From positions 42,480 through 106,479 of the forward strand of contig CAWAIL010000024.1 of the NCBI GenBank assembly GCA_963782085.1: a DNA stretch of 64,000 nucleotides, given 5' to 3'. The notes beneath the pieces were generated by a model, which saw nothing but the letters and a program-made list of their open reading frames with translations, had not been told where the DNA came from and did no database searches. A program made the translations under genes and the position numbers. Every line of letters starts with the position of its first letter. Position 1 is the stretch's first letter. Below, piece after piece: positions 30,060 to 50,069 of this stretch. This stretch comes from an uncultured Acidobacteriaceae bacterium (lineage in GTDB: Bacteria > Acidobacteriota > Terriglobia > Terriglobales > Acidobacteriaceae).

Positions 30060-32229
30060 TCACCTCTCCATGCCAGTCAGCGGCGACGCTGGCACTAGCA
30101 TCTCCAGAATCTTTTGCGCCGCCATGGGGATCACCGTGCCCGGCCCGTAGATTCCCGCCACGCCCGCGTCATACAGGAACTCGTAGTCCTGCGGCGGAAT
30201 CACGCCGCCCACCACGACGAGAATGTCGTCGCGGCCCAGCGCGCGCAGCTCGTGAATCAGTTGCGGCACCAGCGTCTTGTGCCCCGCGGCCAGGCTCGAT
30301 ACGCCCACCACGTGCACGTCGCTATCGATGGCAAATCGCGCCACTTCGCGCGGCGTCTGGAAGAGCGGCCCATGTCCACATCGAATCCGATGTCGGCAAA
30401 CGCCGTCGCAATCACTTTCGCGCCGCGGTCGTGCCCATCCTGGCCCATCTTCGCCACCAGAATGCGCGGCCGCCGTCCCTCTTCGTGCTCAAACTCCTCC
30501 ACCATCCGCCGCGCCTTCTTGAACTCCTCGCCATTGGCGCTCTCTGCGGAGTAGACGCCGGCGATGGTGCGCGTTGTGGCTTCATACGGCCCCACACATT
30601 TTCGAGAGCCGAGGAAATCTCGCCCAGCGTCGCGCGTTTCCGCGCCGCATCAACCGCGCACTCCAGCAGATTGCCCTCGCCGCTTCGCAGCGCAACGTTC
30701 CAGCCGCTCCAGCGATTCGCGCACTGCGCTTGCGTTGCGCTCGCGTCTTCAATTCGCTCGAGCCGCTTGATCTGTGCCATCGCGCACCGCATCGTTGTCG
30801 ATGTCGAGCACCGGAATCTCCGGCTCTTCGGTCGCTATGATACGCATTCACGCCCACAATCACGTCGCGGCCCGAATCGATGGCCGCCTGCCTGCGCGCG
30901 GCTGCTTCTTCAATGCGCATCTTGGGCAGACCCGTTTCGATCGCTTTCGCCATTCCGCCCAGCCTCTCAATCTCCTGGATCAGATCCCACGCGGCGTGCA
31001 TAAGCTCGTGCGTCAGCCGCTCCACGTAATACGATCCCGCCCACGGATCGACCACATGCGTGATGCCGGTTTCCAGTCTGCAGATAAAGCTGCGTGTTGC
31101 GCGCGATGCGCGCAGAAAAATCGGTCGGCAGCGCCAGCGCTTCGTCCAGCGCATTGGTATGCAGCGATTGCGTGGCTCCGAAGGCCGCGGCCATCGCTTC
31201 AACGCAGGTGCGCACCACGTTGTTGTACGGATCCTGCGCCGTCAGGCTCCATCCTGAAGTCTGCGAGTGTGCGCGCAGCGCCAGCGATTTCGGGTTCTTT
31301 GCGCCGAAGCTCTTCACGATTTTCGCCCACAACATGCGTGCCGCGCGCATCTTGGCAATCTCCATGAAGTGGTTCATGCCGATGCCCCAGAAGAACGAGA
31401 TCCGCGGCGCAAACGTCATCGACATCGAGGCCTGCGGCTATCCCGGTGCGCAGGTACTCCAGCCCATCAGCCAGCGTGTAGGCCAGTTCGAGATCCGCCG
31501 TCGCGCCCGCCTCCTGCATGTGATATCCGCTCACGCTGATGCAGTTGAACTTCGGCATCTTCGCCGCGCAGTAGCGGAAAATGTCGCCGATGATCCGCAT
31601 CGATCCCGCGGGCGGATAGATGTACGTGTTGCGGACCATGAACTCCTTCAGGATGTCGTTCTGAATGGTCCCGCTCAGCTGCTTCCGGCGCCACGCCCTG
31701 TTCTTCGGCGGCGACAATATAGAACGCCATGATCGGCAGCACCGCGCCGTTCATGGTCATCGAAACCGACATCTGATCCAGCGGGATGCGGCGAAACAGG
31801 ATCTTCATGTCGAGGATGGAGTCGATGGCCACGCCCGCCTTGCCCACGTCGCCCGCGACGCGCTCATGGTCGGAATCGTAGCCGCGGTGCGTGGCCAGAT
31901 CGAATGCCACTGAAAGTCCGCGCTGCCCGGCCGCAAGATTGCGTCGGTAAAACGCATTCGATTCTTCTGCCGTTGAGAATCCCGCGTATTGCCGGATCGT
32001 CCACGGCCGCATCGCATACATCGTGGCGTAGGGGCCGCGCAGATAAGGGGGAATCCCGGCCGCGTAGTTCGAGGTGCTCCAGTCCTGCCAGATCCTCGCG
32101 CGTATAGAAACTCTTGATCGCGATGTGTTCGGGCGAAAGCCACTCGGCGGCAGCCGGTGCCCCGCTGGCTGGGCTCGCCGGCTCCCAGTCGAGCTTCGTG
32201 AAATCGATTTTTGCAAAATCTGGCCGCAT
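30060..32229 (-). CDS. mutB: Methylmalonyl-CoA mutase, large (B12-binding) subunit (frameshifted)
   Basis: [60 protein letters not shown]. Confidence 0.95.
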
Positions 32230-32231
32230 GA

Positions 32232-34015
32232 TTAATCCTTGATTCCCAAACGTTCCTGCCACTTCGTCAAGACTTCCAGCGGATTGCTGCGCACGTGCAT
32301 AAAATCTGCGCAACTCCAGCTGCGCGCAAGCTCTTCCGCGTTCTCAGGATTTCCCGCCACGATCACCGGCGTTTTGCGGCGTAGTGCTTGCAGCTTCGGC
32401 ATCAGATCTGCCACAATCGCCGTCATATTCTTCGTCGGCGCTGCAGAGGACGATCAGGTCAGCCTCGACGCCGGCAATTTCTTCCGCTTTCTTGAATCGT
32501 TTTGCAAAGTTTCAAATCCGGCGCAGGCAAAGAAATTCGCTGCGAAATTCGAGCGCGCCGCGCGCATTTTATCATCGCCGATCTCCGCAAGCAGCACGCG
32601 CGGTGCGTGTTCTCCTGCTGCGGCATGCCGCTCGGTGCGCAGGCGCAACTCCTCATAGTGCGAGCGTTCCGCGCGCGGTCTCGGCACTCATTCGCTCGCT
32701 TCGATCGGCGCGCTCCAGCGCCTGCTCTGCGGGGTTCGCGAATTGATTTGTTCCCACGAAAACACGCGCGACGCCGGCGCAACGGCCATTCTCGCGCGCC
32801 GCCGATCGATTGCTGGAGCAACCGCGGCAATCGTCGCCATCCGCTTGCGCCTTCCGGTAGCCGCCGCGCGCCTCGATCTCCTGCATGAGCTTCCAGCCCT
32901 CGCGCGCGAGCAAATCGGTAATAGTCTCGAGATAATACGATCCGCCGGCCAGCATCGGCCACGCGGCCCAGCCACGCTTCGTGCTTCAGCAGGAGCTGCG
33001 TATTGCGCGCCAGCCGCCGGCTGGCCTCATCCGGCTGACTTGTAGCATGCGTCGAAGGGCGCGACAATCGACAGAGTCTGCGCCGCCGAGAACCGCGGCC
33101 ATGGCTTCGGTGGTGGCGCGCAAAATATTGACGTGCGGATCGTAGAGAGTCTTGTTCCACGCGAAGTGCGCGCGGCGATTTGCGCGCGGGATGCTTCCGG
33201 TGAGATGCCGCCAAAGCTATCCGCAACGCGCGGCCCACACCATGCGAAATGCGCGCAGCTTGGCAATCTGAAAGAAGTAGTTCGCGCCGATGGCGAAGCT
33301 GAATTCGATTGCGGCGGCGGCGCGGCTTAGATCGACGCCGCGATCCTGCATGGCGGCAAGAAAATCGATGCCCGCGGCAAGCGCGAGGCCGATTTCTTCC
33401 GCCGCGGTCGCGCCCGCGTCTTCGAATGCATCGCCGTGAATGGTGAACGGCACAAAGCCCTCGGGCGCGGCAGCGACAATGCGCGGCTGCAAACTCGAAG
33501 TTGGCCATTGCGCATCGCATCCAGTGGAAACGCGCGGCGTGTGCGGGTGCGCCTTGAGGTGCTCGATCAAAAGCTGCACCAGCTGCTTCATCGGCGCGAC
33601 TGCAAAATGGACCGGGACCTCGACCAGATTTGCGAGCAGCAGTTCGAAGTCGGCAAGCTTTGCGAAGTGGAACAGAGGCGAATGCAATTCCTTCGGCGCC
33701 GGCGGCAACCGCTGCGCAGGGCGGTTTGCGTTCGCGGATTCAACTCGGTCGCGTCGATTTCTTCGCGGATCGGCCAGTCGCCCGTCGACGCGTGCCGCAC
33801 GCCGAAAAGGGAAATACGCCGGGGGCCGCATCCAGGCACGGCGATCTTCTTCAGGTCTTCTGCGCGATAATAGGGCTTAACCGCCAGCCCCTCTTCGCTT
33901 CGCCAGATCAATCGTTTCTCGTAGTCGGCGCCCTTCAGATCGCGCGCAATTGCGGCTTCCCACTCCGCCGTGCTGACCGGAGGGAACTCGTCGAAGCAGA
34001 TGTTCCGTTAGCCAT
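32232..34015 (-). CDS. mutA: Methylmalonyl-CoA mutase small subunit (frameshifted)
   Basis: EFPPVSTAEWE..DLKG, KPYY, FFQIAKLRA, GGSYYLE, FVGTNQFAN, ARSNFAANFF; lacks the DxHxxG motif. Confidence 0.85.
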
Positions 34016-34023
34016 GCCTTCTG

Positions 34024-34502
34024 TCATTTGCCCTCGGGGTCTTCCACCATCTCCAACAGAACTCCAAATGGATGGTCGGCTCGCGACTTGGGATGAACAA
34101 AAAAGACGGTCGTTCCTCGCGAACCTTTGCGCGGAGCTTTGTCGATAAGTTGAAAACCCTCAGTCCTGCATCGCATCGAAGGCGCGCTGCGCGCTGTCAA
34201 CGCGAAAAGCCACATGGGCCAATCCGCCGCGCCCGCCGTTTTTGTCGATGAGCTTCTGAACCGGCGAGTCGGGAGAAAGCGGCTCCAGCAGCTGAATCAG
34301 ATTCGGTCCGTCGCCAATTTCAAGCAGCGCCTCGCGCACTTGGTCGGTTCCGCGCACTTCTTCGCGATGAATCTCTCTGAATCCCAGGGATTTCGTATGC
34401 ATTGACCTGGCCTTCAAGCTCACCCTGCTTCACCGCGATCGCCACGTGGTCAACGAATTTGATCCCAGGAACGTGCCCCAGCTCGCCTTGCTCCGCAATC
34501 AT
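34024..34502 (-). CDS. mce: Methylmalonyl-CoA epimerase (frameshifted)
   Basis: DHVAIAV, IQLLEPL, GLAHVAFRVD, FVHPK, GVLLE; position in the operon. Confidence 0.88.
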
Positions 34503-34543
34503 CCGCTTTCCTTCTTTACTCTGTAATGCCTAATTTATCGCGG

Positions 34544-34921
34544 TTATTCAAGTTCGGCGAGGATTTGATTTTGTTTGACTGGGTCGCCCTGGGCGACGTG
34601 GATGCTCTTCACGATTCCCGCATGCGGGGCGGCGATGTTGGTTTCCATCTTCATTGCCTCAAGCATCAGCAGCACTTCCCCAGCTTCCACCTGCTGGCCA
34701 GGTTTCGCGTTTACTTTGATCACCAGGCCCATCAAGGGGCTGCGGGCGATTTTGTTGTCGCTGTCCCATGCGCTGTTGTGGGCTGGCGGATGCGCGCTGA
34801 CGGATGCGTAGTTTGCGGTACGATGAGGGGTTTGAGGCGGAGCCTCGGGGCCATCGTCTTCTTCGACGACCTCGACATCAACCTCGTATGCCTTGCCGTC
34901 GATTGTGATCCGGAGCTTCAA
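34544..34921 (-). CDS. Biotin carboxyl carrier protein (transcarboxylase 1.3S/MmdC-like)
   Basis: MKLRITIDGKAYEVDVE N-terminus; EAMKME biotinylation motif. Confidence 0.9.
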   Translation of the reverse strand: MKLRITIDGKAYEVDVEVVEEDDGPEAPPQTPHRTANYASVSAHPPAHNSAWDSDNKIARSPLMGLVIKVNAKPGQQVEAGEVLLMLEAMKMETNIAAPHAGIVKSIHVAQGDPVKQNQILAELE

Positions 34922-34954
34922 CGTCAGATGCCTTTCCAGAGGAATTGTGATGGA

Positions 34955-35399
34955 TTAAGCTCTCGGCCGAGGTGTGTGAGATGTCTGCACGATGACTCGC
35001 CCCTGCTGTGCCCAGGCGCCCGCCGCGTTCTCCGCCGGCTGAGCGTGTGCAGCGCGAATTTGCGCTTTCTTCCCAAGAAAAGTCGTTGCGGCTGCCGTGA
35101 TGACAGCCAAAGTTTCCGGCTGCAACGGCTCCGATTCGGGTTCGGAGGTTTCCGCCGATGCGCTATTGTTTACGTTGTCGGTCTTCGGCGGCGACTTTGA
35201 TTCTCCAGTGGACATCTCATCGATGCGTCGATGAAGCGTCTCCATGCCGGCGGCAAGTGCGCCGAGGCTTTGGTCGAATTTCATTTGCCGTTCGGCAACA
35301 GCCTTATGCAACGCGCGCAGGAATGCGGATATAAACCAACGTGCAGCCGGCAGCGGTTAGCCCGGTCGCGAGCAGGACGTCGGACCAATTCATTTTCAT
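34955..35399 (-). CDS. Small accessory subunit (OadG/MmdD/epsilon-like) of the carboxyltransferase complex (probable frameshift near 35320)
   Basis: N-terminal hydrophobic segment; ETLAVITAAATTFLG and AWAQQGR motifs; lies between the carboxyltransferase and BCCP genes. Confidence 0.6.
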
Positions 35400-35412
35400 G
35401 CGTTGCCACCTT

Positions 35413-36991
35413 TCAGAGCGGAATCAGCCCGTGCTTTTTCTGCGGCCGCAGCTCGCGCTTGCCGTGCAGCGATTCAAGCGCCCGCGCCAGATACCTCCGC
35501 GTCTCCGCTGGCTCAATGATGTCGTCCACCAGCCGTCGCCCCGCCGCCACATAAGGATTCGAAAACGTGTCGCGGTACTCGTCGACCATTTCCTTGCGCC
35601 GCGCAGCTTTGTCCTCGGCCGCGTCAATCTCCTCGCCGGAACACAATCTCCGCCGCGCCCTCGGCGCCCATCACCGCAATCTCCGCCGTCGGCCACGCCA
35701 CCACGCGGTCCGCGCCCAGACCCTTCGAGCACATGGCAATGTACGCGCCGCCATACGCCTTGCGCAGAACCACCGTGATCTTCGGCACCGTCGCCGCCGA
35801 ATAGGCAAACAGCAGCTTCGCTCCATGCCGGATGATTCCGCCGCGCTCCTGCTCCACGCCCGGCAAGAATCCCGGCACATCCACAAACGTCAGCAGCGGA
35901 ATGTTGAACGCATTGCAGAAGCGCACAAACCGCGCCGACTTGTCTGACGCATCGATGTCGAGCGCGCCGGCCAGCACGCACGGCTGGTTGGCAACGATTC
36001 CCACGGGTCGTCCCTGCAAGCCGTCCAAACCCGATCACGATGTTCGCGGCAAACTCCGGCTGAATCTCAAGAAAATCCTCGTTGTCCACCACGCGCACAA
36101 TCACGTCGCGCACGTCGTAGGCCACCTTGGGGTCGGCGGGAACAACGTCGTTCATCTCGGAGTCGGCCTTCAATTCGCCCGTTGAAAGGCAGCCGCGGCG
36201 GATCTTCAAGATTGTTCGCAGGCAAAAAGCTCAGCAGCCGCCGGCAAAGCTGCAATCGCCTCGTCGTCGTCGCGCGCAATCAGGTGCACCACGCCGGAGT
36301 AGTGCATCTGCGACTGCGGGCCGCCCAGATCCTCGGCGCTCACCTCTTCGCCCGTCACCTGCTTGATGACCTGCGGTCCGGTAATGAACATGCGCGCCTG
36401 CTCGGTCTGGATCACGAAATCCGTGAGCGCCGGACTATACGCCGCGCCGCCCGCGCATGGCCCGCAGATCAGCGAGATCTGCGGCACCGTTCCCGAGAGC
36501 ATCACGTTGTGATAGAAAACCCGCGCATATCCGGCCAGGCTGTCGATGCCTTCCTGCACGCGCGCGCCGCCCGAGTCGTTGATAAAGATGAAGGGGCTGC
36601 CGGTCTTCAGGCTCATGGCCATCATCTCGGCCACTTTGTTGCAGTGCGTCTCGCCCGCCGCGCCGCCGGCCACGGTAAAGTCCTGGCTCGCCAGGTGCAC
36701 CAGCCGGCCATCGATGGTCGCGCATCCGGTCACCACTCCATCGGCAGGCAGTTCTTTGTCGGCCATTCCGAAATACGTCGCCCGATGCCGCGCAAACAGC
36801 CCGATCTCTTCAAAGCTGTCTCGATCCACCAGCCGCTCCACGCGTTCGCGCGCCGACAGCTTGCCGGTTGCGTGCTGGCGCTCAATGCGATCTTTGCCGC
36901 CGCCGAGTTCCAGCTCGGCGCGCTTCGCCTCAAGCTCGGCAATCTTGTCGCCAATCGTTTTCTTCTTTTCGACCTCTTCGCCGGTGATCAT
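35413..36991 (-). CDS. Acyl-CoA carboxyltransferase, methylmalonyl-CoA carboxyltransferase 12S-like (frameshifted)
   Basis: [74 protein letters not shown]. Confidence 0.92.
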
Positions 36992-38737: not shown

Positions 38738-40046
38738 TTACGAGAACCGCGTCCTTCGCCACAGCAGCGTTCCGCACAGAACCAGCGGGATCATCGTGCC
38801 TAAGATCAGCACAATCATCCAGGGAACGTTGACATAAATGTGCTGCGCGCGCGTGCCCACGGCCAGCCAGACAAAGATGCCGGTGGCCACGCAGCATAAT
38901 CAGCACCTCCCACCAGCGGCGCGGGTGCTTGTCGTCGGCCAGAGGATCGTTGCCGGCCACCACGGCGGCTACATTTTCCGTGTCGAGACTCGTAGCGGTC
39001 GCACTCGCGATGCATCGCCGCGTTCCAGTTCTCCATCTCCGAAGGCGGCGGCTCGGCCATGCTGATCGAAACCGCGCCGACAATCATGATGGTCGATCCG
39101 GCAATGATCAGAGCCTTCCGCCTGTCGGCAATGCCAGCAAACTCGCCAAACACCAGCGCGCCCCACGCCAAGGCCCCAAAGCTGGTTGGTGTTCGAGAGC
39201 GGAATGCCGCGCCCGATGCCGATATACTTCGCCGCATAATGCTGAAACAGGTCGCCGATGACCCAGCAGAATCCGCCGACGAAACGGCCAGAAGAGCATG
39301 GTGCGCGCGCGCGTGCAGTTCTGCGAGCAGCGGGGACGATGCCGCCGTATAAAAGATCGCAGCCGAGCAGACAGGACCGTTCCCAGTTCGCCAAAGGTGA
39401 AAATCGTCACGAACGACAGCGGATTCATGCCGCTGATGTACGCCTTGCGGTAGGGAATGTACATGGTGCCGAACATGCAGCCCGCGCCCAGCGCGGCAAT
39501 GATGCCGATGGCGGCCTTGCCCGGCGTGCCCGCATTCTGCTGCGCCGTGGCCACGGCCAGCACCGCCGCGCCAAACACAATCGCCGCCGCGCCGCCAATC
39601 ACCTTCGCCCAGTCTTTCGCTCGCGATCCGCGCAGCTCTTTGAACAGCAGGCAGCCCCACGCAAGAGCCCCACCAGGCTGTTCGTATTCCACAGCGGAAA
39701 CGCAATCGCCAGGCCCACGTTGCGCACGGCAAAAATGGTCAGCGTATTGCCCACCGCCCACAGCATTCCGCCCAGCAGCGCCCACACCATCAGGTGCGGC
39801 TTTTCGCGCAGGTCGTCGAACAGGAATCCCGTGCCTTTCAGCAGCGTGGGAACCGTCCAGCGCGCCACAAACGCGCCCATCACCATCCCCATCGAGATGA
39901 GAACGGAGAGAAGCCCTCGTTCACCAGCTTGGTCGGCGCTTCCGCGCTGCCCAGCCACACCGCGGCGGCCAGCCCGCAAAACACGCCCAGCTTGTGCAAT
40001 GAAATGCGTCGACCGCGCTGGCGCGGATGGTCGTCTGCTCGCTCAT
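38738..40046 (-). CDS. GRP-family (DMT superfamily) sugar transporter, probable inositol uptake (frameshifted)
   Basis: Multiple TM helices; GMLWAVGN..VGLAIAFPLWNTN, IGIGRGIPLSNTN..WGALVFGE; last gene of the iol operon. Confidence 0.8.
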
Positions 40047-40159
40047 GCGCTTCACCTCAGCGTCATCAGCAGTGTGGTTCCCAGAATCAGCACGACCACA
40101 GGCACCCAGAGATGCACGTCAGGTCAGAATGCAAACTCAACCTGTCGGATTGTCTTCGA

Positions 40160-41193
40160 TCAGCAGACGACCTCCGCAAGCTTCACCGGCCGGTGCTCGT
40201 CAAACGATTTGCGCGCCGCCAGCGCCATCACCACCGGCACGCGGCCGTCGGCTCCCGTCACCGGCGTCGGCTTGCCTTCGAGCACCGCCTGCATAAACAG
40301 CTGCGAGCTCCAGCGCAAAGCTCTCCGGTATAGCGTTCCATGAAGAAGTTCAGCGGCAGATCAGTGTAGACAGATTTCCCGCTGCTGACCACAACTTCGT
40401 TGGGATAGCGATTTTCGCTCGCGATCTTGCCCTTGCTGCCCAGGATCTCCACGCGCTGGTCGTAGCCAAACACCGCCTTGCGGCTGTTGTCGATGGTGCC
40501 GATCGCGCCGTTCTTGAAGCGCAGCACCACGAGCGCCGTATCCAGGTCGCCCGCCTTGCCGATCTCCGGGTTCGACCAGCACGCCGCCCGCCGTGTAGAT
40601 CTCTTCCACTTCGTCGCCGATCAGAAAGCGCGCCATGTCGAAGTCGTGAATCATCATGTCGAGAAAGATGTCCGCCCGAGGTGCGGAGATACGCGATCGG
40701 CGGCGGCGCGGGATCGCGGCTGATGATGTGCATCAGGCTCGGCTTGCCGATCTCGCCGCTTCGCCACGGCCTGCCGCACGCGCCTGAAGTTCGAGTCGAA
40801 GCGCCGGTTGAACCCGATCTGCAGTTTCACGCCCGGCCTTTGCACCGCCGCCAGCGCCATGTCGATCTTGTCCAGAGCTGAACGCGATCGGCTTCTCGCA
40901 GAAAATGTGCTTGCCGGCCTTGCGCCGCCTGCACAATCAGGTCGGCGTGCGTGCCGGTTGGCGAGCAGATCAGCACCGCCTCGATCTTTTGGATCGCCAA
41001 TGATCTCCTCGGCCGACGCGACCACCTTGGGAATACCGCACCGCGCCGCCAAGTGCCTGCGGCTGCCTCGCGATTCATGTCGGCGATCGCAACGATCTCC
41101 GCCTCCGGCAAGCCGGAAGGCCAGCGTCTCCGCATGAACGCGCCCAATCCGTCCCGCACCAATGATTCCGAAATGAAGTTTCTTTCCGCTCAT
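40160..41193 (-). CDS. iolG: Inositol 2-dehydrogenase (frameshifted)
   Basis: GAGRIGRVH, CSPTGTH, FCEKP, GFNRRFD, SRDP, DMMIHDFD, GYDQRVE. Confidence 0.92.
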
Positions 41194-41316
41194 TCTTTCC
41201 CTCGCAAAACTGCTCAGCTTCTCAGCTCCTGAGCTTCGTCGTCATCCGTTAGCGCCGGCATTCCTGAATTCGCGGCAAGACTGGAACGTTAACGGCTAGA
41301 CAGCTAAAGGCTGTTC

Positions 41317-42256
41317 TTACGTAAAATTCGCTTCAATCGACCGAAGATACTCGCGGCTGCGCGCCGCGCTTTCCTTCGGCGTTCCCATGCCCGGCAGAAT
41401 GTCCTGCTCCACCAGCACGTATCCTTTGTAGTCGCGTGCGCGCCAGCCAGCGCAACAGGGCAGGGAAGTCGACGCATCCTTTGCCCAGCTCGGGGTACAG
41501 GCCGTTCCGCATCGCCGTAAAGTAATCCCACTCTTCTTCGCGGCTGCGGCGCGCGACATTCGGCTCCAGATCTTTCAGATGGATGTACCAGATGCGCTCC
41601 TTGAAGCGGTTGAGCGCAGCGACGACGTCGACATCCTCGCTGCCCGTGCCGTGCACGTAGTGGCCGGCGTCGAACACCAGTCCGAGCCGCTCGGGATTGG
41701 TCAGGTCGAGAAGCGTCGCGATCTCGTCCGGCGTCTCCACATAGCCCGCGCAATGGTGATGAAACACCGTGCGCAGTCCCGTCTCGTCGAACACCGCATG
41801 CGCAATCTCGGTCGGCGCCGCTCGCAAAGGTCTTCCACTCGTCTTTGCGTCAGTCCGGCGTTCGGCCGTGATGCGTCCGGCCAGCTTGGTGCGTCGCAGG
41901 ATCGGTGCCGTTATCGTCGGCCAGCACCAGGAACGGCGCCTGCGTTGTGGCCACCGCGGCGATCAGCTTCGCCGTCTTCACGGCTCGCTCGCCGCGCCCT
42001 CCGCGTGCGCCGCAGGATTCTTCATCGCCACCGGCACAAACGCGCCCAGCATCACCACGTTGTTGCGCTTCGCCAGTTCCTCGCTCAGCCGCACCGCGTC
42101 GGTCGGCATGTAGCCCCAGTCGCCCAGCTCCGTTCCCGTGTAGCCGGTCTCCACCAGCTCGTCCAGCATCTGGTTGAACGGAATCGCCTGGCTTTGGTCC
42201 TGGTGCTCCAGCGTGCCCCACGAACACGGCGCATTGCCCACCAACAGCTCTTTCAT
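41317..42256 (-). CDS. iolE: IolE-like myo-inosose-2 dehydratase (TIM barrel; frameshifted)
   Basis: [47 protein letters not shown]; iol context. Confidence 0.75.
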
Positions 42257-42302
42257 GCGTTCTCCTTGCACCGCTTTTCGTGCCCTGTTTTCAGACTGCC
42301 AT

Positions 42303-42316
42303 CTTACACGTGTGCA
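42303..42316. promoter_or_regulatory. Putative LacI-type operator upstream of iolE
   Basis: CTTACACGTGTGCA, a variant of TGCACACGTGTGCA. Confidence 0.65.
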
Positions 42317-42353
42317 TCGGGTTGAGCTAAATTCCACTACGGCTAGAGCTGCT

Positions 42354-43825
42354 TTAGAACTTCCGGCTCCACTCCTTCGGCCAGCGTTCCACCACAACCT
42401 TGGTCTGCGTGAAGAACTCCACCGCGTGGTGCGCCTGCGCGTGCAGATCGCCGAAAAAGCTTTCGCCCCATCCGCTGAACGGGAAGGTCGACATCGGCGC
42501 GGCCACGCCCACGTTGATGCCCACGTTGCCCGCGTTCACTTCATAGCGGAAGCGCCGTGCATTGGCGCCATCGGTCGTGAAGATGCACGCCATGTTGCCG
42601 TAGCTGCGCCCATTCACCAGCGCGATCGCTTCTTCAATCGTTTGCGCGTGGATCAGGCTCAGCACCGGCCCAAAGATCTCCGTCCGCGCCGTCTCGGAAT
42701 CCGGCGGAACGTCGTCGAGCACCGTGGGCAGCACGAAATAGCCGTCTTCGTAGTCCGCCACTTTCTTGCCGCGCCCATCCACAATCACGCGCGCGCCGGC
42801 CTGCTCGCCCTTCGCAATCAGTCCTTCGATCCGCGTCTTGCTCTCGGCGGAAATCACCGGGCCCATCTCCACGCCCGGCGCCGCGCCGTAGCCCGTCTTG
42901 CGGTTCTTCGCCGCCGCCGCAATCTGCTCCGTGAAATTTGGCCGCGCATCGCCCACCGTGATCGCCACCGATGCCGCCAGGCAGCGCTGTCCCGCGCAAC
43001 CAAACGCGGAATCGGCCAGAATCCGCGTCGTCATCTCCATGTCCGCGTCCGGCATCACCACCACCGGATTCTTCGCGCCGCCCTGGCACTGCGCGCGCTT
43101 TCCGTTCGCCGCCGCGCGGCTGTAAATGTACTTCGCCGTCGCCGTCGATCCCACAAAGCTCACCGCGCGGATTCCCGGATGGTCGAGAATCGCGTTCACC
43201 GCATCGCGTCCGCCGTTCACCAGCTGCATCACGCCCGGCGGAAAGCCCGCCGCCTGAATCAGGCTGAAAAGTTTCTGCGAAGTGATGGGCACGCGCTCCG
43301 ACGGCTTGAGCAGAAAGCAGTTTCCCGCCGCCACCGCGTAAGGCAAAAACCAGAACGCAATCATGCCCGGAAAATTGAACGGCACAATCGCCGCCACCAC
43401 GCCCAGCGGCTGCCGGATCATGTGCTCGTCAATGCCCGCGCGCAATGTCTTCGCAGTTCGTGCCCTGCATCATCATCGGCATGCCGCAGGCCGTCTCGAC
43501 GTTCTCCACCGCGCGCAGAATCTCCGCCTTGCTCTCCGCCAGCGTCTTGCCGCACTCGTTGGTGATGGAGAGCGCCAGCTCGTCGCGATGCTGCTCCAGC
43601 AGCGTCTTCAGCCTGAACAGCGGCTGCACGCGATCCACCACCGGCGTCCGCCGCCACTGCGATAAACGCGCGCTCGGCCACTTCCACCGCCGCGTTCACA
43701 TCCGTTGCCGGCGAAAGCGGAACCTCCGCCAGCACCTTTGCTGATGCCGGGTTGATCACGTTCAGCGCATCGCTCGCGCTCGATGCGCGCCAAGCGCCAT
43801 CAATAAAATTCTGCAACCGCTCCAT
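42354..43825 (-). CDS. iolA: CoA-acylating (methyl)malonate-semialdehyde dehydrogenase (one frameshift)
   Basis: PFNFP, KPSERVP, FVGST, GGAKN, GCAGQRC, EIFGP, GVAAPM..FPFSGW..SFFGDLH. Confidence 0.92.
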
Positions 43826-43839
43826 CGTCTGTTCTCTCC

Positions 43840-45723
43840 TCAGAGGTAATGCCGTTCGCGCTTACGCGCCTCTTCATACCTTGCCCGCGCCTCGCGCACG
43901 CTCTCCATCTCCGAAACTTCGGCCACCGCAACATCCCACCACGAGTCGTAACCCGGCACGCCGACCGAAGCATCCGTCTCCACCACAATCACTGTGGTCC
44001 GGTCCAGCGCCTTGGCTTCCTCGAGCGCCTTCTTCAACTCGTCCAGGTTCGCCGCCTTGATCGCATGCGCGCCCAGGCTGCGCGCGTTGGCCGCAAAGTC
44101 CACCTTCAGCAGCTCGCCATCCAGCTGCCCGGTCTTCGCATCGCGCGCGCGATAGCGCGTTCCGAATCCGCCCTGCCCCAGCGATCGGCTCAAGGCTGCC
44201 GATGCTGGCGAAGCCGTGATTGTCCACCAGCACGATGATGATCTTAATGCCTTCCTGCACCGATGTCACAATCTCCGTGGGCATCATCAGGTAGGTGCCG
44301 TCGCCGAGAAACACAAACACCTCGCGGCTCGGGATCGGCCAGCTTCGCGCCCATCGCGCCGGGAATCTCGTAGCCCATGCACGAGTAGCCGTATTCCATG
44401 TGATAGCCGTTCGGCGTGCGCGTGCGCCACAGCTTGTGCAGGTCGCCGGGATGGCTGCCCGCCGCCGACAGCAGCACGTCGCGCTCGCCCGCCGCCTCCC
44501 ACATCGCGCCAATCACTTCGCTCTGCGCCGGCTTGCCCGCGCAATTCGAATCCTGCTTGTTCAGATGGAAGAGCCGATCGACTTCCGCGTCCCACTTCGC
44601 TTTCAGCTCCGCAATCTCCGCCGCATACGCCGCGCTCACCTTGATGTCCGCCAGCGCCGCGCTCAATTGCTCCAGCGCCACGCGCGCGTCGGCCACCACA
44701 GGAATCGCGCCCACTTTGTACGCGTCGAACTCCGCCGTGTTGATGTTCACGAACGTCACATCCGGATTCTGGAACGCCGTCATCGACGCCGACGTGAAGT
44801 CGGAATAGCGCGTTCCGATGCCGATGACCAGATCGGCCGCATGTCGCCAGCCGATTCGCTGCCAGCGATGCCCGTCGCGCCGATCGCGCCCACCACCTGC
44901 GCATGATCCCATGCGAGCGAGCCTTTGCCCGCCTGCGTCTCCGCCACGGGAATGCCGGTCTTCGCAACAAAATCGCTCGAGCGCCTGCGAAGCTTCGCTC
45001 ATCAGCACGCCGCCGCCCGCCACAATCAGCGGCCGCTCCGCCGCGCGAATCGCCTTCAACCGCGCGCTCCAGCGAAACACGATCCGGCTCGCCGCGCCGG
45101 ATCAGCCACACGCGCTTCTCGAAAAGCTCTTCGGGATAGTCGTACGCTTCGGTCTGCACATCCTGCGGCAGCGCCAGCGTCACTGCGCCGCAATCGGACG
45201 GCGAAGTCAGCACGCGCATCGCTTCAGGCAGCGACGTGATCAGTTGTTCCGGCCGGTAGATGCGGTCCCAGTAGCGCGACACCGGCTTGAAGCAGTCGTT
45301 CACGCCGATGTCCTGCGTGGCCGGCGACTCAATTTGCTGCAGCACCGGCGCCACATTGCGCCGCGCAAAAATATCGCCGGGCAGCAGCAGCACCGGCAGC
45401 CGGTTGATGGTCGCCAGCGCCGCGCCGGTAATCATGTTCGTCGCGCCCGGCCCAATCGACGATGTGCACGCAAACGTGCGCAGCCGGTTGCTGGCTTTGG
45501 CAAAGCCCGTCGCCATGTGCACGCCCGCCTGCTCGTTGCGCACCAGGATGTAAGGAAAATCGGGATTCTGCTGCAGCGCCTGGCCGATCCCGGCCACGTT
45601 GCCGTGCCCGAAGATGCCCAGCATGCCGGCGAAGAACGCATGCTCGCGGCCGTCCCGCTCCACATGCTGCTGCTTCAGGAACTGGATCAGCGCCTGCGCC
45701 ATCGTCATGCGCCGCGTCTTCAT
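43840..45723 (-). CDS. iolD: 3D-(3,5/4)-trihydroxycyclohexane-1,2-dione acylhydrolase (frameshifted)
   Basis: GIFGHGNVAG, RNEQ, SIGPGATN, PGDLHKLW, EYGYSCMGYE, GDGTYLM, SWWDV. Confidence 0.95.
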
Positions 45724-45797
45724 GCCCGTTCCCTCGTTTCCTTCAGGTCAGCGCCGTGACTTGCCGAACATACTCACGCCCGACCGCGGTGCAGGCC

Positions 45798-46617
45798 TCA
45801 CCTTTTCACCATCGGCAACCTCGGGTCTTTTCCTTCCAACTCGCTCTTCACCCACGCATAATCCGGATCGTCTGAGCGGCCAGCGACCGCGCCGAACCCG
45901 CCAGCGCGTTCAGATAATACACGTTGTATCCATGCGCGGCCACCACCGGATGATATCCCTCCGGAACCAGCACCAGTTCGCCGTCGCGCACGGTCATGCG
46001 TTTCGTCGATGCGCCTGTCCGCGGTGTACACCTTCTGCACCGCGAATCCCTCCGGCCGCTCGATCCGGTAGTAGTAAATCTCTTCGAGATCCACTTCGCC
46101 CGGCGGGTTGTGCACGTCGTGCTTATGCGGCGGAAAGCTCGACCAGTTGCCCGCCGGCGTGAATACTTCCACCACCATCAGCCGCTGCGCCAGAAATCCG
46201 GCGGCAGCATGGAGTTGATCTGCCGCGTCGCATTTCCGCCGCCGCGAATCTCGATTCCCACATGTGTCCGGCGTGACCAGCCGCGCCGGATATTCTTCTT
46301 CGGCCTTGCAGTAGCAAAACGCCAAGTCGCAGCCGCCTCAGTGGTGACGATGAACGAAGTGCGGATGGGCAGATAAAGCGTGTAGGGCAGTCCATCGAAA
46401 ACCGTTGGCGCGCTTGCCAATCTCGTGCCACTCGCCGCGCGAACTGGTCACCGAGCAAACGCCGCCCAGCACCACAATGGCCAGTTCCCGTTCCGGCCGT
46501 CTCGCCGTAATAGTTCTGACCGCGCTCGAGCTTGCGCGTTTCAAACGAAAGAAATTCATATCCGAAATCTTCAATCCGGTTGCGGAATTTCTCCGGGCGG
46601 ACCAACAATTCACTCAT
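45798..46617 (-). CDS. iolB: 5-deoxy-glucuronate isomerase (frameshifted)
   Basis: EVFTPAGNWSSFPPHKHD, LEEIYYY, PEGYHPV, YYLN. Confidence 0.93.
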
Positions 46618-46821
46618 GAATCACATCTCCTGCGGCGCCGTCAAGTTTAGGCGCAATCGCAAATCCGCGTCGTTCAATTTCCAGGTCGGTTCTCGCAGAA
46701 TGAGCCGCAACTTTAGATGCGGGAGCGCCCTGCAAATCTGGAAATGGAGCGACTTTTCGAATTTGCGTAAGGGCCTTCCAGGTTTGGCTGAACCTGGAAG
46801 GGGAAGTGCAACAAGGCCCGA

Positions 46822-46874
46822 TGCACACGTGTGCAAGCCATCTCTATAATCTCTCAGTTTCGGTGCCCTGTCAA
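46822..46874 (-). promoter_or_regulatory. sigma70 promoter of the iolB operon plus a perfect 14-bp operator
   Basis: Minus strand TTGACA-17 nt-GATTAT (46874-46846), followed by palindrome TGCACACGTGTGCA at 46822-46835. Confidence 0.75.
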
Positions 46875-47113
46875 CCGGTCTCTCGAATTTTTCTTCCGGC
46901 CGGCCAAGTGACTGGATAAGCAATAGATACACTCGAAGACAGCGGGACCGCGAAGGGCGGTAAAATCGATTTGTCAAACGGTCTTGTTTGCCGCTCGATC
47001 GGCTCCGCGAGGATCAGGAAAACTCCCGGCGTTTTTCATCCCTCCTAATCTCTTGGCGCGTTTCCGGTATCGGCCCCCAAAATTGCCGCGGAATTTTTGT
47101 AACGACGCTTTTC

Positions 47114-47161
47114 TTGACCGTGATTTCCTGCGGTGTTAGGTTGGTTCTGCACACGTTTGCA
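47114..47161 (+). promoter_or_regulatory. sigma70 promoter of the transaldolase gene plus operator
   Basis: TTGACC-17 nt-TAGGTT (TG-extended), then TGCACACGTTTGCA at 47148-47161, then GGAGG RBS. Confidence 0.75.
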
Positions 47162-47176
47162 TCGCCGGAGGATCTC

Positions 47177-48280
47177 ATGGCTGTTACCGATACCGCGCTC
47201 CAATTCAAAAGCCCGCTCCACAAAATGACGCAGACCACCCCCACCTGCCTGTGGAACGATTCGGCCGCCATCGAAGAGCTCACGTATTCCATCGAGCACG
47301 GAGCGGTCGGCGCCACCTGCAATCCATCCATCGCAGTCGAGCGTGCTGAAGCAGGAGATGCGCAGCCTGGAAGCCGCGCATTCTCGAATTTGCCGCGGAC
47401 GCTGCCAACGGCGACAGAAGACGAAATCTCGTGGCGCATCGTCGAGGAAATTTCGGCAAATGCCGCGCAACTGCTGATGCCCATCTTCGAGCGCGAAAAA
47501 GGTCGCAACGGACGCCTCTCCATCCAGACCGATCCGCGCAACTACCGCAATGCGGACGCCATGCTGGTGCAGGCCATCCGCTTCAGCCAACTTGCGCCCA
47601 ACATGATCGTGAAAATCGCCGCTACGCGCGCCGGCATCCCCGCGATTGAAGAAGCTACCTACCGCGGCATCAGCATCAATGCCACCGTCAGCTTTACCCT
47701 CCCTCAGGCAATCGCAGTGGCCGAGGCCGTCGAGCGCGGCCTCAAGCGTCGCGAAGCGGAAGGCCTCGACATATCAACCATGGGCCCGGTTTGCACGCTC
47801 ATGGTCGGCCGGCTTGACGACTGGCTCAAGGTGCTGCACGACAAGCACAATCTCTCCGTCGATCCCGGCTATCTGGAGTGGGCCGGCGTTGCCGTCTTCA
47901 AGAAGGCGTACAAGATTTATCGCGAGCGCGGCTACCGCCTGCGCCTGCTCTCGGCTGCATTCCGCAATCACATGCACTGGAGCGAGTTCATCGGCGGCGA
48001 CGTGGTCATCTCCCCGCCGTGCGCCTGGCAAAAACGCTACAACGAAAGCGACATTGAAGTCGTTTCGCGCATCGACACGCCCGTTGAGCCGCGCATCGTC
48101 GAAACGCTGCTCAAGAAATTCCCTGACTTCGAGCGCGCCTATTCAGAAAATGGAATGAAGGCGGAAGAGTTCGATACGTTCGGCTCAACGCGGAGAACTC
48201 TTCGCCAATTTATTGCTGCCTGCGCGGAGATGAATGCGATCGTGCGGGATGTGATGCTGCCGAATCCGGATAACGAGTAG
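47177..48280 (+). CDS. Atypical transaldolase-family protein
   Basis: WNDS, GATCNP, GRLSIQTDPR, Schiff-base VKIAAT, INATVSF, MVGRLDD, AAFRN; ATG 47177 with GGAGG RBS. Confidence 0.88.
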   Translation: MAVTDTALQFKSPLHKMTQTTPTCLWNDSAAIEELTYSIEHGAVGATCNPSIAVERAEAGDAQPGSRAFSNLPRTLPTATEDEISWRIVEEISANAAQLLMPIFEREKGRNGRLSIQTDPRNYRNADAMLVQAIRFSQLAPNMIVKIAATRAGIPAIEEATYRGISINATVSFTLPQAIAVAEAVERGLKRREAEGLDISTMGPVCTLMVGRLDDWLKVLHDKHNLSVDPGYLEWAGVAVFKKAYKIYRERGYRLRLLSAAFRNHMHWSEFIGGDVVISPPCAWQKRYNESDIEVVSRIDTPVEPRIVETLLKKFPDFERAYSENGMKAEEFDTFGSTRRTLRQFIAACAEMNAIVRDVMLPNPDNE

Positions 48281-48346
48281 CGGAGAACCTGGTAGCGACA
48301 GATCGCGGGCTTCGGACCTCGCTCCTTCGCAACCGTCCTCCCTGAT

Positions 48347-48976
48347 CTACTTCAACCACATTTGCGGATTGCTGGTCGAAACTGCGCTCAGGCCCTGGGC
48401 CAGAAGCGCCTCTACTTCTTTCAAGTTCGAGATCAGCCCGCCTCCAACCACAGGCAGGTCAAGACCGAGCAGTTGCACTCGATCGATGAACTTCGGCGCA
48501 ACCAGGGCAGGCAGAATTTCCAAGGCATGCACGGGGGAATTCTTCAGCTGGTTGGTGATGGTATCCATCGCGCCGCTGTCGAGCAGGAACGTGCGTTGAA
48601 TAGCATAGAGACCAATCGACAATGCATGGCGTAACGGATCGAGATGGGTGGAGATGATTCCGCGGGCGCCGACCTTCTTCAGATAGTTCACTGCGTAACG
48701 GTCGCGGGAAAATCCATTCAATAGATCCAGATTCACAATCGGAATCTTGTCCGCGCCGAGAATCTGCTGGATCATTGATTCGATGTTCTCTGGGTCGCCG
48801 GCAAGCAGGTAAACCAGTTTGCCGCGCGATGCAACTGCCTGCTCGACAAATTCTGGCTTGCGGATGGCGGGGATGATCGGCGTCTCCTGGCAAAAAATGC
48901 GCAGTGGAGTCAGCGAGGGATCGGACGACTTTGCTATATTTTTTCCCAGGTCATTTCCTCCGCTGCCCATTGGCAT
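48347..48976 (-). CDS. GlpP-family glycerol-3-phosphate-responsive antiterminator-like protein (start uncertain)
   Basis: PIIPAIR, VNLDLLNG, GIISTH, IQRTFLLDS, EILPA, GGGLI, AVSTS. Confidence 0.85.
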   Translation of the reverse strand: MPMGSGGNDLGKNIAKSSDPSLTPLRIFCQETPIIPAIRKPEFVEQAVASRGKLVYLLAGDPENIESMIQQILGADKIPIVNLDLLNGFSRDRYAVNYLKKVGARGIISTHLDPLRHALSIGLYAIQRTFLLDSGAMDTITNQLKNSPVHALEILPALVAPKFIDRVQLLGLDLPVVGGGLISNLKEVEALLAQGLSAVSTSNPQMWLK

Positions 48977-50039
48977 TTGCCTTTCCCGTTGACTGCCTGA
49001 CAATCAGTTCCGACTTAACCCTGATCTGGGAGACTGACTCTTCGCCCGAAATAAGTTTCAAGAGCGCCTCCGTGGCGATCTGCCCCATGCGCCGCATGGG
49101 CTGGCGGACGGTGGTCAGTGGCGGCTCCAGATAAGAAGCAAAAAACAGGTCATCAAATCCCGTGACCGAGATGTCGTGCGGCACTCGCAGCCCACGCGCA
49201 TGGATCGCGTGCATTGCGCCGATAGCAGTCATGTCGTTATAGCAGCAGATTGCCGTCGGAGGCTGTTCCAGGGCCAGCAATCCATTCACAGCCTCGCATG
49301 CGGCTTCAGGGCGGCCATCGCCCGCAACGGCAAGCTCCGGGTGAAATGCGATTCCGGCTGCATCGAGCGCCTGTTTGTATCCGGTCAGGCGCTCCGTGTC
49401 TGAGTGATAGCCCGAGCGATCCCCCACATACGCAATGCGCGTGTGGCCAAGTTCGATCAGATGTTCGGCGGCCGCGCGGCTGCCTTCGATGTTTTCGATC
49501 ATTACGCAATGAACAAATTCACCGGGATACTGATCGTTGACGATCACAACCGGGACCATCATTTCCGCGATCAGCGGAAGATACATCGCGCCCACGCGCG
49601 AAGAGGTGACGACGATGCCGTCGACGCGTTGCTCGGCGAACGTCTGCACCATTTTGCGTTCACGTTCGGGTTCAGCATTGGAGTTTGCGAGAAAAACGCT
49701 GTAGCCGTGATCGTTGGCTGCCTGCTCGATGCCGAGAGCGACTTCGCCGGCAAACGGGTCGTTCACCGAGGTGACGACCAGGCCGATGGTGCGCGTTCTC
49801 CGTGTCACAAGGCCGCGGGCAACAGCGCTGGCGCGGTAGCCCGCATCCTCTGCAATCTTTCTTATCTTGGCTGCCGTTTTGGCGTTGACCAGGGGGCTGT
49901 TCTGCAGCGCGCGCGAGACGGTGGGGTGCGACACCTTTGCCAGGCGCGCGATGTCTTTGATCGAAGGCTGCCGGTGCATTCTTTTGGCGGCTGCCGACTG
50001 TGCCGCGCCAGGCGCTTTTCCCCCATCTTTCTGCAACAT
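48951..50039 (-). CDS. LacI family transcriptional regulator (probable iol repressor)
   Basis: SIKDIARLAKVSHPTVSRAL, ARGL, NDMTAIG, GFDD, LTTVRQP; AGGAG RBS before ATG 50039. Confidence 0.93.
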   Translation of the reverse strand: MLQKDGGKAPGAAQSAAAKRMHRQPSIKDIARLAKVSHPTVSRALQNSPLVNAKTAAKIRKIAEDAGYRASAVARGLVTRRTRTIGLVVTSVNDPFAGEVALGIEQAANDHGYSVFLANSNAEPERERKMVQTFAEQRVDGIVVTSSRVGAMYLPLIAEMMVPVVIVNDQYPGEFVHCVMIENIEGSRAAAEHLIELGHTRIAYVGDRSGYHSDTERLTGYKQALDAAGIAFHPELAVAGDGRPEAACEAVNGLLALEQPPTAICCYNDMTAIGAMHAIHARGLRVPHDISVTGFDDLFFASYLEPPLTTVRQPMRRMGQIATEALLKLISGEESVSQIRVKSELIVRQSTGKANANGQRRK

Positions 50040-50055
50040 GCTGAAAACTCCTGAA

Positions 50056-50069
50056 TGCACACGTGTACG
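50056..50069. promoter_or_regulatory. Putative autoregulatory operator upstream of the LacI gene
   Basis: TGCACACGTGTACG, downstream of minus-strand TTGACT-17 nt-GAGACT. Confidence 0.65.

Follow-up and report, generated by a model that had tools for sequence, protein, structure and literature searches.

A transaldolase-family enzyme as putative kinase-free ending of the myo-inositol pathway in an uncultured Acidobacteriaceae bacterium

Introduction

In the canonical myo-inositol (iol) pathway, known from Bacillus subtilis as IolG-E-D-B-C-J-A, the enzymes IolG, IolE, IolD and IolB make 5-dehydro-2-deoxy-D-gluconate (DKG), i.e., 5-deoxy-D-fructuronate, a molecule with a free CH2OH-CO end, the C3/C4 configuration of fructose and a terminal carboxylate. 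The pathway is continued by the kinase IolC and a DKG-phosphate aldolase, and in canonical variants IolC is fused to DUF2090 or is accompanied by a DeoC-type aldolase. In the papers cited, the described alternatives to the aldolase all act after phosphorylation (PMC9007349, PMC13311982). A kinase-free solution is found in sulfoglycolysis, in which the sulfo-transaldolase SqvA (SftT; PDB 8bc3) cleaves an unphosphorylated anionic ketose made by an isomerase, passes dihydroxyacetone from sulfofructose to glyceraldehyde 3-phosphate (GAP) and leaves a C3 aldehyde to an aldehyde dehydrogenase (PMC12890257). Here we report on a stretch of 64,000 nucleotides from an uncultured Acidobacteriaceae bacterium (GenBank assembly GCA_963782085.1, contig CAWAIL010000024.1, positions 42,480 to 106,479 of the forward strand), called the window in the following, which carries an iol gene cluster with a transaldolase-family (TAL) gene. 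The cluster encodes the same upper enzymes and the same IolA as the canonical pathway, whereas neither IolC nor a DKG-phosphate aldolase was found in the cluster or, as searched, in the genome, and the TAL-family gene occupies that slot. It had been predicted from the sequence that this enzyme ends a kinase-free pathway, and the genomic predictions of that reading came out in its favor with respect to gene content, linkage and the scarcity of IolC; on this genomic ground we consider it probable that the TAL enzyme cleaves unphosphorylated DKG to malonate semialdehyde.

DKG resembles sulfofructose: both are ketoses that share the C3/C4 configuration of fructose, and in both the end of the molecule away from the keto group is anionic. 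However, SqvA comprises approximately 220 amino acids and matches TAL proteins of the window type over a short stretch only, while the TAL protein studied here has approximately 366-367 amino acids and is encoded among iol genes. Since it is larger and is closest in sequence and fold to transaldolases of the Corynebacterium/Neisseria type, the likeness to SqvA, as judged from sequence, concerns the logic of the pathway and does not reflect orthology. In the literature searched, from which subscription journals were mostly absent and in which unread supplements might mention the gene, no paper ties a transaldolase to iol clusters, and the word "transaldolase" did not occur in the inositol papers searched for it. 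Within this coverage, no description contradicts the original remark that such a branch is not known to be described.

The gene cluster and its assembly

The window sits on contig C24 of an assembly of 5.23 Mb in 25 contigs, which is rated 57.7% complete. Genes were called by Pfam and NCBIfam profile scans and by tblastn with intact proteins of the congener G034. A transporter, iolG, iolE, iolD, iolB and iolA had been predicted, and all six were located by both approaches on the minus strand at approximately 38738-46617; the further claim that iolC and iolJ are missing from the window agrees with tblastn searches using three IolC proteins, two class I aldolases and one class II aldolase, which gave no match. 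The genes of the cluster are as follows.

38738..40046, minus strand: RhaT/GlcU/TMEM144-type (DMT) sugar transporter, likely for inositol uptake (PF07857/PF06800, TIGR00776, tblastn); split by indels
40160..41193, minus strand: iolG, inositol 2-dehydrogenase (TIGR04380, tblastn); split by indels, 3' end approximate
41290..42256, minus strand: iolE, inosose dehydratase (TIGR04379; IolE of a congener is 77% identical); split by indels, 3' end approximate
42354..43825, minus strand: iolA, CoA-acylating (methyl)malonate-semialdehyde dehydrogenase (MMSDH) (TIGR01722; 84-97% identity to congener); split by indels
43840..45723, minus strand: iolD, trihydroxycyclohexanedione hydrolase (TIGR04377 in three pieces, tblastn); split by indels, 3' end approximate
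45790..46617, minus strand: iolB, 5-deoxyglucuronate isomerase (TIGR04378, PF04962); split by indels, 3' end approximate
47177..48280, plus strand: TAL enzyme of 367 amino acids (PF00923), divergent from iolB
48347..48971, minus strand: GlpP-family gene, glycerol-3-phosphate-responsive antiterminator-like (PF04309), downstream of the LacI gene; start approximate
48951..50039, minus strand: LacI-family regulator, likely the cluster repressor and IolR-like (PF00356/PF13377)

All six minus-strand cluster genes are split by frameshifts, as seen by tblastn with congener proteins, and in the alignment residues 54-72 of the TAL protein are scrambled by compensating indels. These breaks are most likely assembly errors, because unrelated neighbors, i.e., nearby mutase and carboxyltransferase genes, are frameshifted as well (tblastn), the cluster genes of congeners are intact with few exceptions, and the six iolB indels of the window are missing from related contigs of two studies. 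Contigs covering the 5' part of the TAL gene show three gaps, and no single contig of this comparison extends over the entire cluster. One explanation is that the cluster is decayed, or that the enzyme is a normal transaldolase of the pentose phosphate pathway encoded beside iol genes by chance; it is very improbable, and we regard it as largely refuted. The sources do annotate homologs as "transaldolase" only, and the six genes are frameshifted in this assembly; against this stand the indels in unrelated neighbors, the two canonical transaldolases encoded elsewhere in the genome, which carry Glu and Phe at the acid-base positions discussed below, and the profile scores of the enzyme. It is a member of PF00923 (131 bits, cut-off 27) but scores at most 111 bits on the transaldolase subfamily profiles, for which cut-offs are 234-712. 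A housekeeping transaldolase copy is present in five of five near-complete congeners that carry the TAL enzyme, and in the genus the presence of the TAL enzyme tracks iolD exactly, as shown in the following section.

IolC and its aldolases in the genome and in congeners

Whole genomes were searched with an IolC profile at a cut-off of 300 bits; IolC proteins linked to clusters scored 280-395 bits. The best score in the present genome, an incomplete assembly, was 114 bits. The best PfkB protein of the genome was rejected as a hidden IolC: its gene adjoins a KDPG-aldolase-like gene, the context of a 2-keto-3-deoxygluconate (KDG) kinase and a 2-keto-3-deoxy-6-phosphogluconate (KDPG) aldolase. One fructose-bisphosphate aldolase (FBA) of class II and one stand-alone DUF2090-like gene are located on other contigs with neither iol neighbors nor the operator of the cluster. 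Since the assembly is noisy and rated only approximately 58% complete, absence was judged on relatives. Among 36 congener genomes that are at least 85% complete, eight encode the TAL enzyme (76-85% identity), the same eight carry iolD over the cut-off, and no IolC match above 107 bits was found in them. The TAL gene is divergent from iolB in seven of these eight, and in seven of eight it encodes the only unassigned catabolic enzyme of a compact iol cluster. A class I (DeoC-type) aldolase, which accompanies IolC in other Acidobacteriota, was found in none of the five near-complete carrier congeners, and a DUF2090 match over the cut-off in two, a count of genomic matches irrespective of their context. 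Four genomes of another genus carry iolD without the TAL enzyme, and three of them show an IolC-like match at 280-288 bits, a number resting partly on genome G046, which is flagged unpublished. The whole-genome search for IolC and IolJ, which had been suggested as a check, thus gave no IolC, no IolC-DUF2090 fusion and no cluster-linked IolJ, neither here nor in near-complete congeners.

Distribution of the enzyme and co-occurrence with IolC

A scan covering 10 of 64 parts yielded 527 confirmed genome loci. In the best 80 of these, iolD was present in 51 and iolB in 48, IolC in none, and the direct neighbor of the TAL gene was an iol-type gene in 53; 80 metagenome loci gave iolD in 27, iolB in 23 and again no IolC. 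Fifty of the 80 genomes were searched as a whole, half of them chosen because their locus showed no more than one weak iol gene, and half having clusters: IolC over the cut-off was found in 0/50 (best score 176 bits), iolB in 43/50, including 18/25 of the genomes with a weak locus. By record title the carriers belong to Acidobacteriota, Dormibacterota/Chloroflexota, Actinomycetota, Verrucomicrobiota, Spirochaetota and Methylomirabilota, with clear iol clusters in each of these phyla except at the loci of Verrucomicrobiota and Spirochaetota. The TAL gene takes the slot of iolC and the aldolase, with gene orders such as iolE-TAL-iolD and iolA-TAL-iolD-iolB as compared to iolB-iolC-aldolase-iolD, and MMSDH directly adjoins it even in some loci outside iol clusters.

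Three phyla were sampled. For 301 genomes of Chloroflexota, the phylum of genome G345, at most seven candidates per genome were scored in the IolC search; the TAL clade was found in 22 genomes, iolB in 68 and IolC in 24 (23 over the cut-off and one at 295 bits). The 68 genomes with iolB divide into 24 with IolC only, 14 with the TAL enzyme only, none with both and 30 with neither (Fisher p = 0.0012, a value that is overstated since related genomes are not independent). Twenty loci of the last group were inspected, and iolD lies beside iolB in only three, one of these with a split transketolase. Eight of the 22 Chloroflexota carriers are without an iolB match; two of these belong to iol clusters that a contig end truncates, and six to other clusters. 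In 250 genomes of Acidobacteriota, the TAL clade was present in four and iolD in 19, three of which have the TAL enzyme, six IolC, none both and ten neither (p = 0.52, not significant alone); the ten carry iolD, iolE being present in some cases and absent in others, and no iolB was found in the stretch retrieved. Several of the Acidobacteriota loci (L035, L036, L037 and L040) have an iolD that is divergent (48% identity), accompanied or not by iolE; iolB, IolC and TAL were not found in the stretch retrieved. A sample of 250 genomes of Actinomycetota added a single carrier, in whose available 13 kb there are no iol genes; this is too few for judging co-occurrence with IolC. The phylogenetic profile is therefore as had been anticipated, with the TAL clade inside iol clusters over several phyla and anti-correlated with IolC, though the exclusion is not absolute.

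A quick IQ-TREE analysis of 137 rows, without five duplicates and the scrambled copy of the window, groups 107 of them into a single clade (SH-aLRT 96). Because contexts outside iol clusters are nested inside this clade, the enzyme is, by its position in the tree, mostly but not exclusively an inositol enzyme. TAL-like proteins with 28-31% identity (G016, G020, G238 and Shinella plasmids) share the Gln described below and were not counted, since they belong neither to the clade nor to iol clusters. A cultured carrier without iolC was not found in the homolog lists, whose entries bore MAG names or none; the only cultured close match is plasmid pCI3 of Clavibacter insidiosus, a carrier with iolC. 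Megamonas, for which a stable-isotope probing study reports metagenome-assembled genomes (MAGs) with iolG/E/D/B and without iolC/iolJ (PMC13617567), was dropped as a cultured example: three species of this genus have both iolC and iolJ according to Table S2 of PMC9430895.

Several observations weigh against the TAL enzyme as a replacement for IolC and IolJ. No iolB, iolD or iolE is nearby in 28 of the 80 genome loci, in part owing to contig ends, seven of the 50 carrier genomes searched as a whole are without iolB, six of the 22 Chloroflexota carriers lie in clusters of another kind, and G179 is a carrier without iolD. In G218 and G254 a ribokinase-like PfkB gene is located 5-7 kb from the TAL cluster. 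Plasmid pCI3 (L235:1653-15074) carries iolC, a DeoC-type aldolase, iolB and iolD together with an intact TAL member, which is 57% identical and has the same active-site residues. Moreover, the genomes are mostly incomplete MAGs, and related ones do not count as independent. The full iolC-aldolase route beside the TAL gene on pCI3 could mean that the TAL enzyme is an accessory protein of iol clusters acting on another keto-acid (one that stems, for example, from a different cyclitol or from a sugar acid of the fructuronate type), while the main route ends in an unrecognized enzyme. The ten iolD-bearing Acidobacteriota with neither IolC nor TAL fit this reading, as do nested subclades in clusters with a Zn-dependent dehydrogenase, an M24-family protein and a short-chain dehydrogenase/reductase (SDR), or with a molybdoenzyme, a phosphoenolpyruvate (PEP)-utilizer, a cupin and a split transketolase. 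We nevertheless regard it as quite unlikely: the TAL enzyme is the sole unassigned catabolic enzyme of compact clusters in most carrier congeners, most genomes with neither ending are without a full upper pathway, as the inspected Chloroflexota loci illustrate, and no alternative candidate recurs over the best 80 genome loci.

Improbable, too, is that the TAL enzyme replaces IolJ only, in which case an unrecognized kinase would make DKG 6-phosphate and the TAL enzyme would cleave it to dihydroxyacetone phosphate (DHAP) and malonate semialdehyde. Asn168 and Thr207 of the window protein match TalB residues which presumably hold a free C1-OH, a PfkB-type match occurs in 1/80 genome loci and, weakly, in 1/80 metagenome loci, and the best PfkB of this genome has the KDG kinase/KDPG aldolase context given above. 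Transaldolase and fructose-6-phosphate aldolase (FSA) use dihydroxyacetone (DHA) and not DHAP (PMC4012138). In favor of a hidden kinase are the several unassigned PfkB kinases of the genomes, the ribokinase-like genes of G218 and G254, and the existence of aldolases other than IolJ, namely DUF2090 (PMC9007349) and, as proposed for D. welbionis, a class II FBA (PMC13311982).

Active site and proposed reaction

The AlphaFold model of P0004, a relative with 86% identity, has a pLDDT of 96; several rows of its input alignment were frameshifted. Foldseek matches it best to Neisseria and Corynebacterium transaldolases (TM 0.76-0.80, 18-23% identity), among the classical transaldolases compared here being those of C. 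glutamicum (3r5e, 23% identity) and N. gonorrhoeae (3clm, 18%), with which the fold is common. The window protein has the Schiff-base Lys146 and Asp28, Asn49, Gln117, Met209, Arg212 and Arg263. Alignment of 112 clade rows (five duplicates) to E. coli TalB and FsaA showed that the equivalents of TalB Asn35, Lys132, Asn154, Thr156, Arg181, Arg228 and Phe302 are kept in 112/112 rows and Asp17 in 111/112. In contrast to classical transaldolases (EC 2.2.1.2), the position of TalB Phe178, which is Tyr131 in FSA, is Met in 112/112 rows (Met209 in the window), and Ser176 is mostly Thr. FsaA shares the Schiff-base Lys, a Gln (Gln59) and the DHA-type donor chemistry, but differs in its Tyr131, in Leu107 and Ala129 (here Asn and Thr), in Lys168 (here Arg) and in being a much smaller protein. 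In FSA, Gln59, Thr109 and Tyr131 form a water network, and exchanging these residues interconverts aldolase and transaldolase (PMC13259622). Because the Gln of FSA is present without the Tyr, the clade, by its residues, is in the TAL/FSA superfamily yet fits neither subfamily definition; and because the active site is neither that of a canonical transaldolase nor that of a canonical FSA, sequence does not tell transfer of dihydroxyacetone from its release.

In the mechanism which we propose, IolG-E-D-B would yield DKG, and the TAL enzyme would perform a retro-aldol cleavage without a kinase. Lys146 would react with the keto carbon to a Schiff base, the free CH2OH would be bound by Asn168 and Thr207, and Arg212 and Arg263 would hold first the carboxylate of DKG and next the phosphate of the acceptor. 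The absent acid-base of the enzyme would be replaced otherwise, possibly by the carboxylate of the substrate or by a conserved His. Malonate semialdehyde would go to IolA and the enzyme-bound dihydroxyacetone unit probably to GAP, giving fructose 6-phosphate (F6P). That the TAL enzyme in this way takes the place of both IolC and IolJ, splitting unphosphorylated DKG and transferring dihydroxyacetone, probably to GAP, is a proposal to which we give an even chance. We favor transfer over release since no DhaK was found, the FSA-type Tyr is missing and both Arg are kept; release retains some probability because of the Gln at the Glu96 site, the glycerol kinase of the congeners and the linked GlpP-like gene.

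Release would correspond to a kinase-free cleavage of DKG by an FSA-like aldolase with subsequent phosphorylation of free dihydroxyacetone by glycerol kinase, which we judge to be rather unlikely. Glycerol kinase is able to phosphorylate dihydroxyacetone, and it is encoded in five of five near-complete carrier congeners; within this genus the GlpP-family gene accompanies the cluster and was not found in 4/4 congeners without an iol cluster, and it lies beside the TAL gene in 7/80 genome loci. Both genes fit a release of free dihydroxyacetone and count, like two features of the active site, on the side opposed to transfer. The acid-base Glu96 of TalB, a feature that defines transaldolases, is replaced by Gln in 112/112 rows (Gln117 in the window, aligned with Gln59 of FsaA), i.e., the FSA state, and Ser226 by Ala in 112/112, while both Arg of the phosphate pocket are kept. 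An FSA-like aldolase would, however, be expected neither with the Met at the Tyr131 position, at which a Tyr gives TalB aldolase activity (PMC4012138, PMC13259622), the exchange F178Y alone being sufficient (PMC4012138), nor with the lack of DhaK, of which none was found in 5/5 near-complete carrier congeners nor in this genome. Furthermore, among the open reading frame (ORF) clusters of 85 loci, judged by representative N-termini, no DHA kinase or glycerol kinase recurs.

Operator and regulation

The following regulatory elements were found in the window, the promoters being consensus matches only.

46822..46835, no strand: perfect palindromic LacI-type operator TGCACACGTGTGCA, the sole exact copy in the 5.23 Mb genome
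47148..47161, no strand: second operator with one mismatch, 15 bp before the TAL start codon
50056..50069, no strand: operator copy with two mismatches upstream of the LacI gene, kept in 6/8 congeners
42303..42316, no strand: weak operator copy with three mismatches upstream of iolE
46822..46850, plus strand: sigma-70-like promoter toward the TAL gene, with its -35 hexamer inside the operator
46846..46874, minus strand: sigma-70-like promoter toward iolB, with the operator just downstream of its -10 box

Two divergent sigma-70-like promoters flank the exact operator, compared to 0.3 expected in shuffles. Genome-wide there are 12 operator sites with at most two mismatches and three with at most one, two of these three in the spacer between iolB and the TAL gene; the pair in this spacer, including the site near the TAL start, is seen again in 7/8 congeners. 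It had been claimed that the TAL gene, iolB and iolE share an operator. This holds for the iolB-TAL spacer, with zero and one mismatch, whereas the site of iolE is weak here, with three mismatches. Sites with up to three mismatches number seven in the window against a mean of 3.6, and 5/100 shuffles reached seven, which is near chance. In the relatives L101 and L094 the operator upstream of iolE has only one to two mismatches. An operator-like site at C2:156527 was dismissed; it adjoins DedA-like and chlorite-dismutase-like ORFs (by eye) with no kinase, and the class II FBA is 15 kb off. In G266, a LacI protein with 66% identity and the same operator motif precede a canonical lacI-iolB-iolC-aldolase-iolD cluster. 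We infer that the LacI protein binds the operator, and it would then release iolB-D-A, iolE-G-transporter and the TAL gene together.

Neighboring genes and variant clusters

Just downstream of the iol genes (window 30400-36991) lie genes for methylmalonyl-CoA mutase subunits, a biotin carrier and a carboxyltransferase, as in most congeners. In three congeners (L011:3246-6038, L012:4213-6939 and L014:13081-15852), a Ser/Thr-kinase-like gene of approximately 920 amino acids, assigned by its N-terminus, is placed between the TAL and the glpP-like gene. In G032 (L015:1987-11683) a two-component pair and a phytase-like histidine acid phosphatase (PF00328) are inserted between iolD and the TAL gene, which is followed by a different MMSDH paralog. 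G091 has a cluster that lacks iolA; in it, a beta-hydroxyacid dehydrogenase (L025:4668-5573) adjoins the iol transporter and could form 3-hydroxypropionate by reducing malonate semialdehyde. At L066:7077-7894 a broken DeoC-type aldolase gene adjoins iolB, with the TAL gene also there and no IolC match in the genome, as if a canonical ending were in the process of being lost.

Outside iol clusters, an acidobacterial subclade of the enzyme (L022, L074, L092, L108, L117 and L118) is found with a Zn-dependent dehydrogenase, to which several members add an M24-family protein, an SDR, an IclR regulator, an aldo-keto reductase and a Gfo/Idh/MocA oxidoreductase. Chloroflexota loci (L133-L135, L137-L139 and L146) combine the TAL gene with varying subsets of a xanthine-dehydrogenase-type molybdoenzyme, a PEP-utilizer, a cupin, MMSDH and a split transketolase. 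The distant Gln-type relative in G020 (28-29%; L021:5484-14761) is located among two 2-hydroxy-3-oxopropionate reductases, a KduD-like SDR and a split transketolase, neighbors which hint at a fructuronate-type acid that would be cleaved to tartronate semialdehyde.

The cluster of G628 (L237:4049-11834), iolE-iolG-iolD-iolB-iolG, ends in a split transketolase, and no IolC or TAL-clade match was found in the genome; by analogy to the sulfo-transketolase (sulfo-TK) pathway it is a possible third, transketolase-type ending. A broader proposal, which we put forward tentatively and somewhat short of an even chance, is that a widespread subfamily with the Gln/Met site cleaves unphosphorylated ketoses terminated by a carboxylate, perhaps with the carboxylate of the substrate as catalyst. 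Such a subfamily would define an "inositol-TAL" pathway used by soil Acidobacteriota, by Chloroflexota/Dormibacterota and in further phyla; with the split-transketolase variant of G628 added, inositol catabolism would have the same kinase, TAL and TK endings as sulfoglycolysis.

Physiological significance

The finding is well supported on genomic grounds, and the putative kinase-free ending would be a variant of the known inositol pathway, carried by an uncharacterized TAL subfamily with an unusual active site. IolC is one of four essential core genes in the scoring of genomes for inositol use (PMC9430895), and because it is treated as such, organisms with the TAL ending look incomplete. Among the genomes sampled here, the TAL enzyme marks each of the eight congeners with iolD and, in Chloroflexota, 14 of the 38 genomes that have iolB and an identified ending. 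If the triose unit goes to GAP, inositol carbon would enter directly as F6P; the net ATP cost would then equal that of the canonical route when F6P is used by an ATP-dependent phosphofructokinase, so that the gain would come from directing carbon to hexose phosphates, while energy would not necessarily be saved. With its Gln and Met, the active site offers a natural test of the choice between transfer and hydrolysis in transaldolase-family enzymes, and the TAL route may carry a real share of the turnover of phytate-derived inositol in soil.

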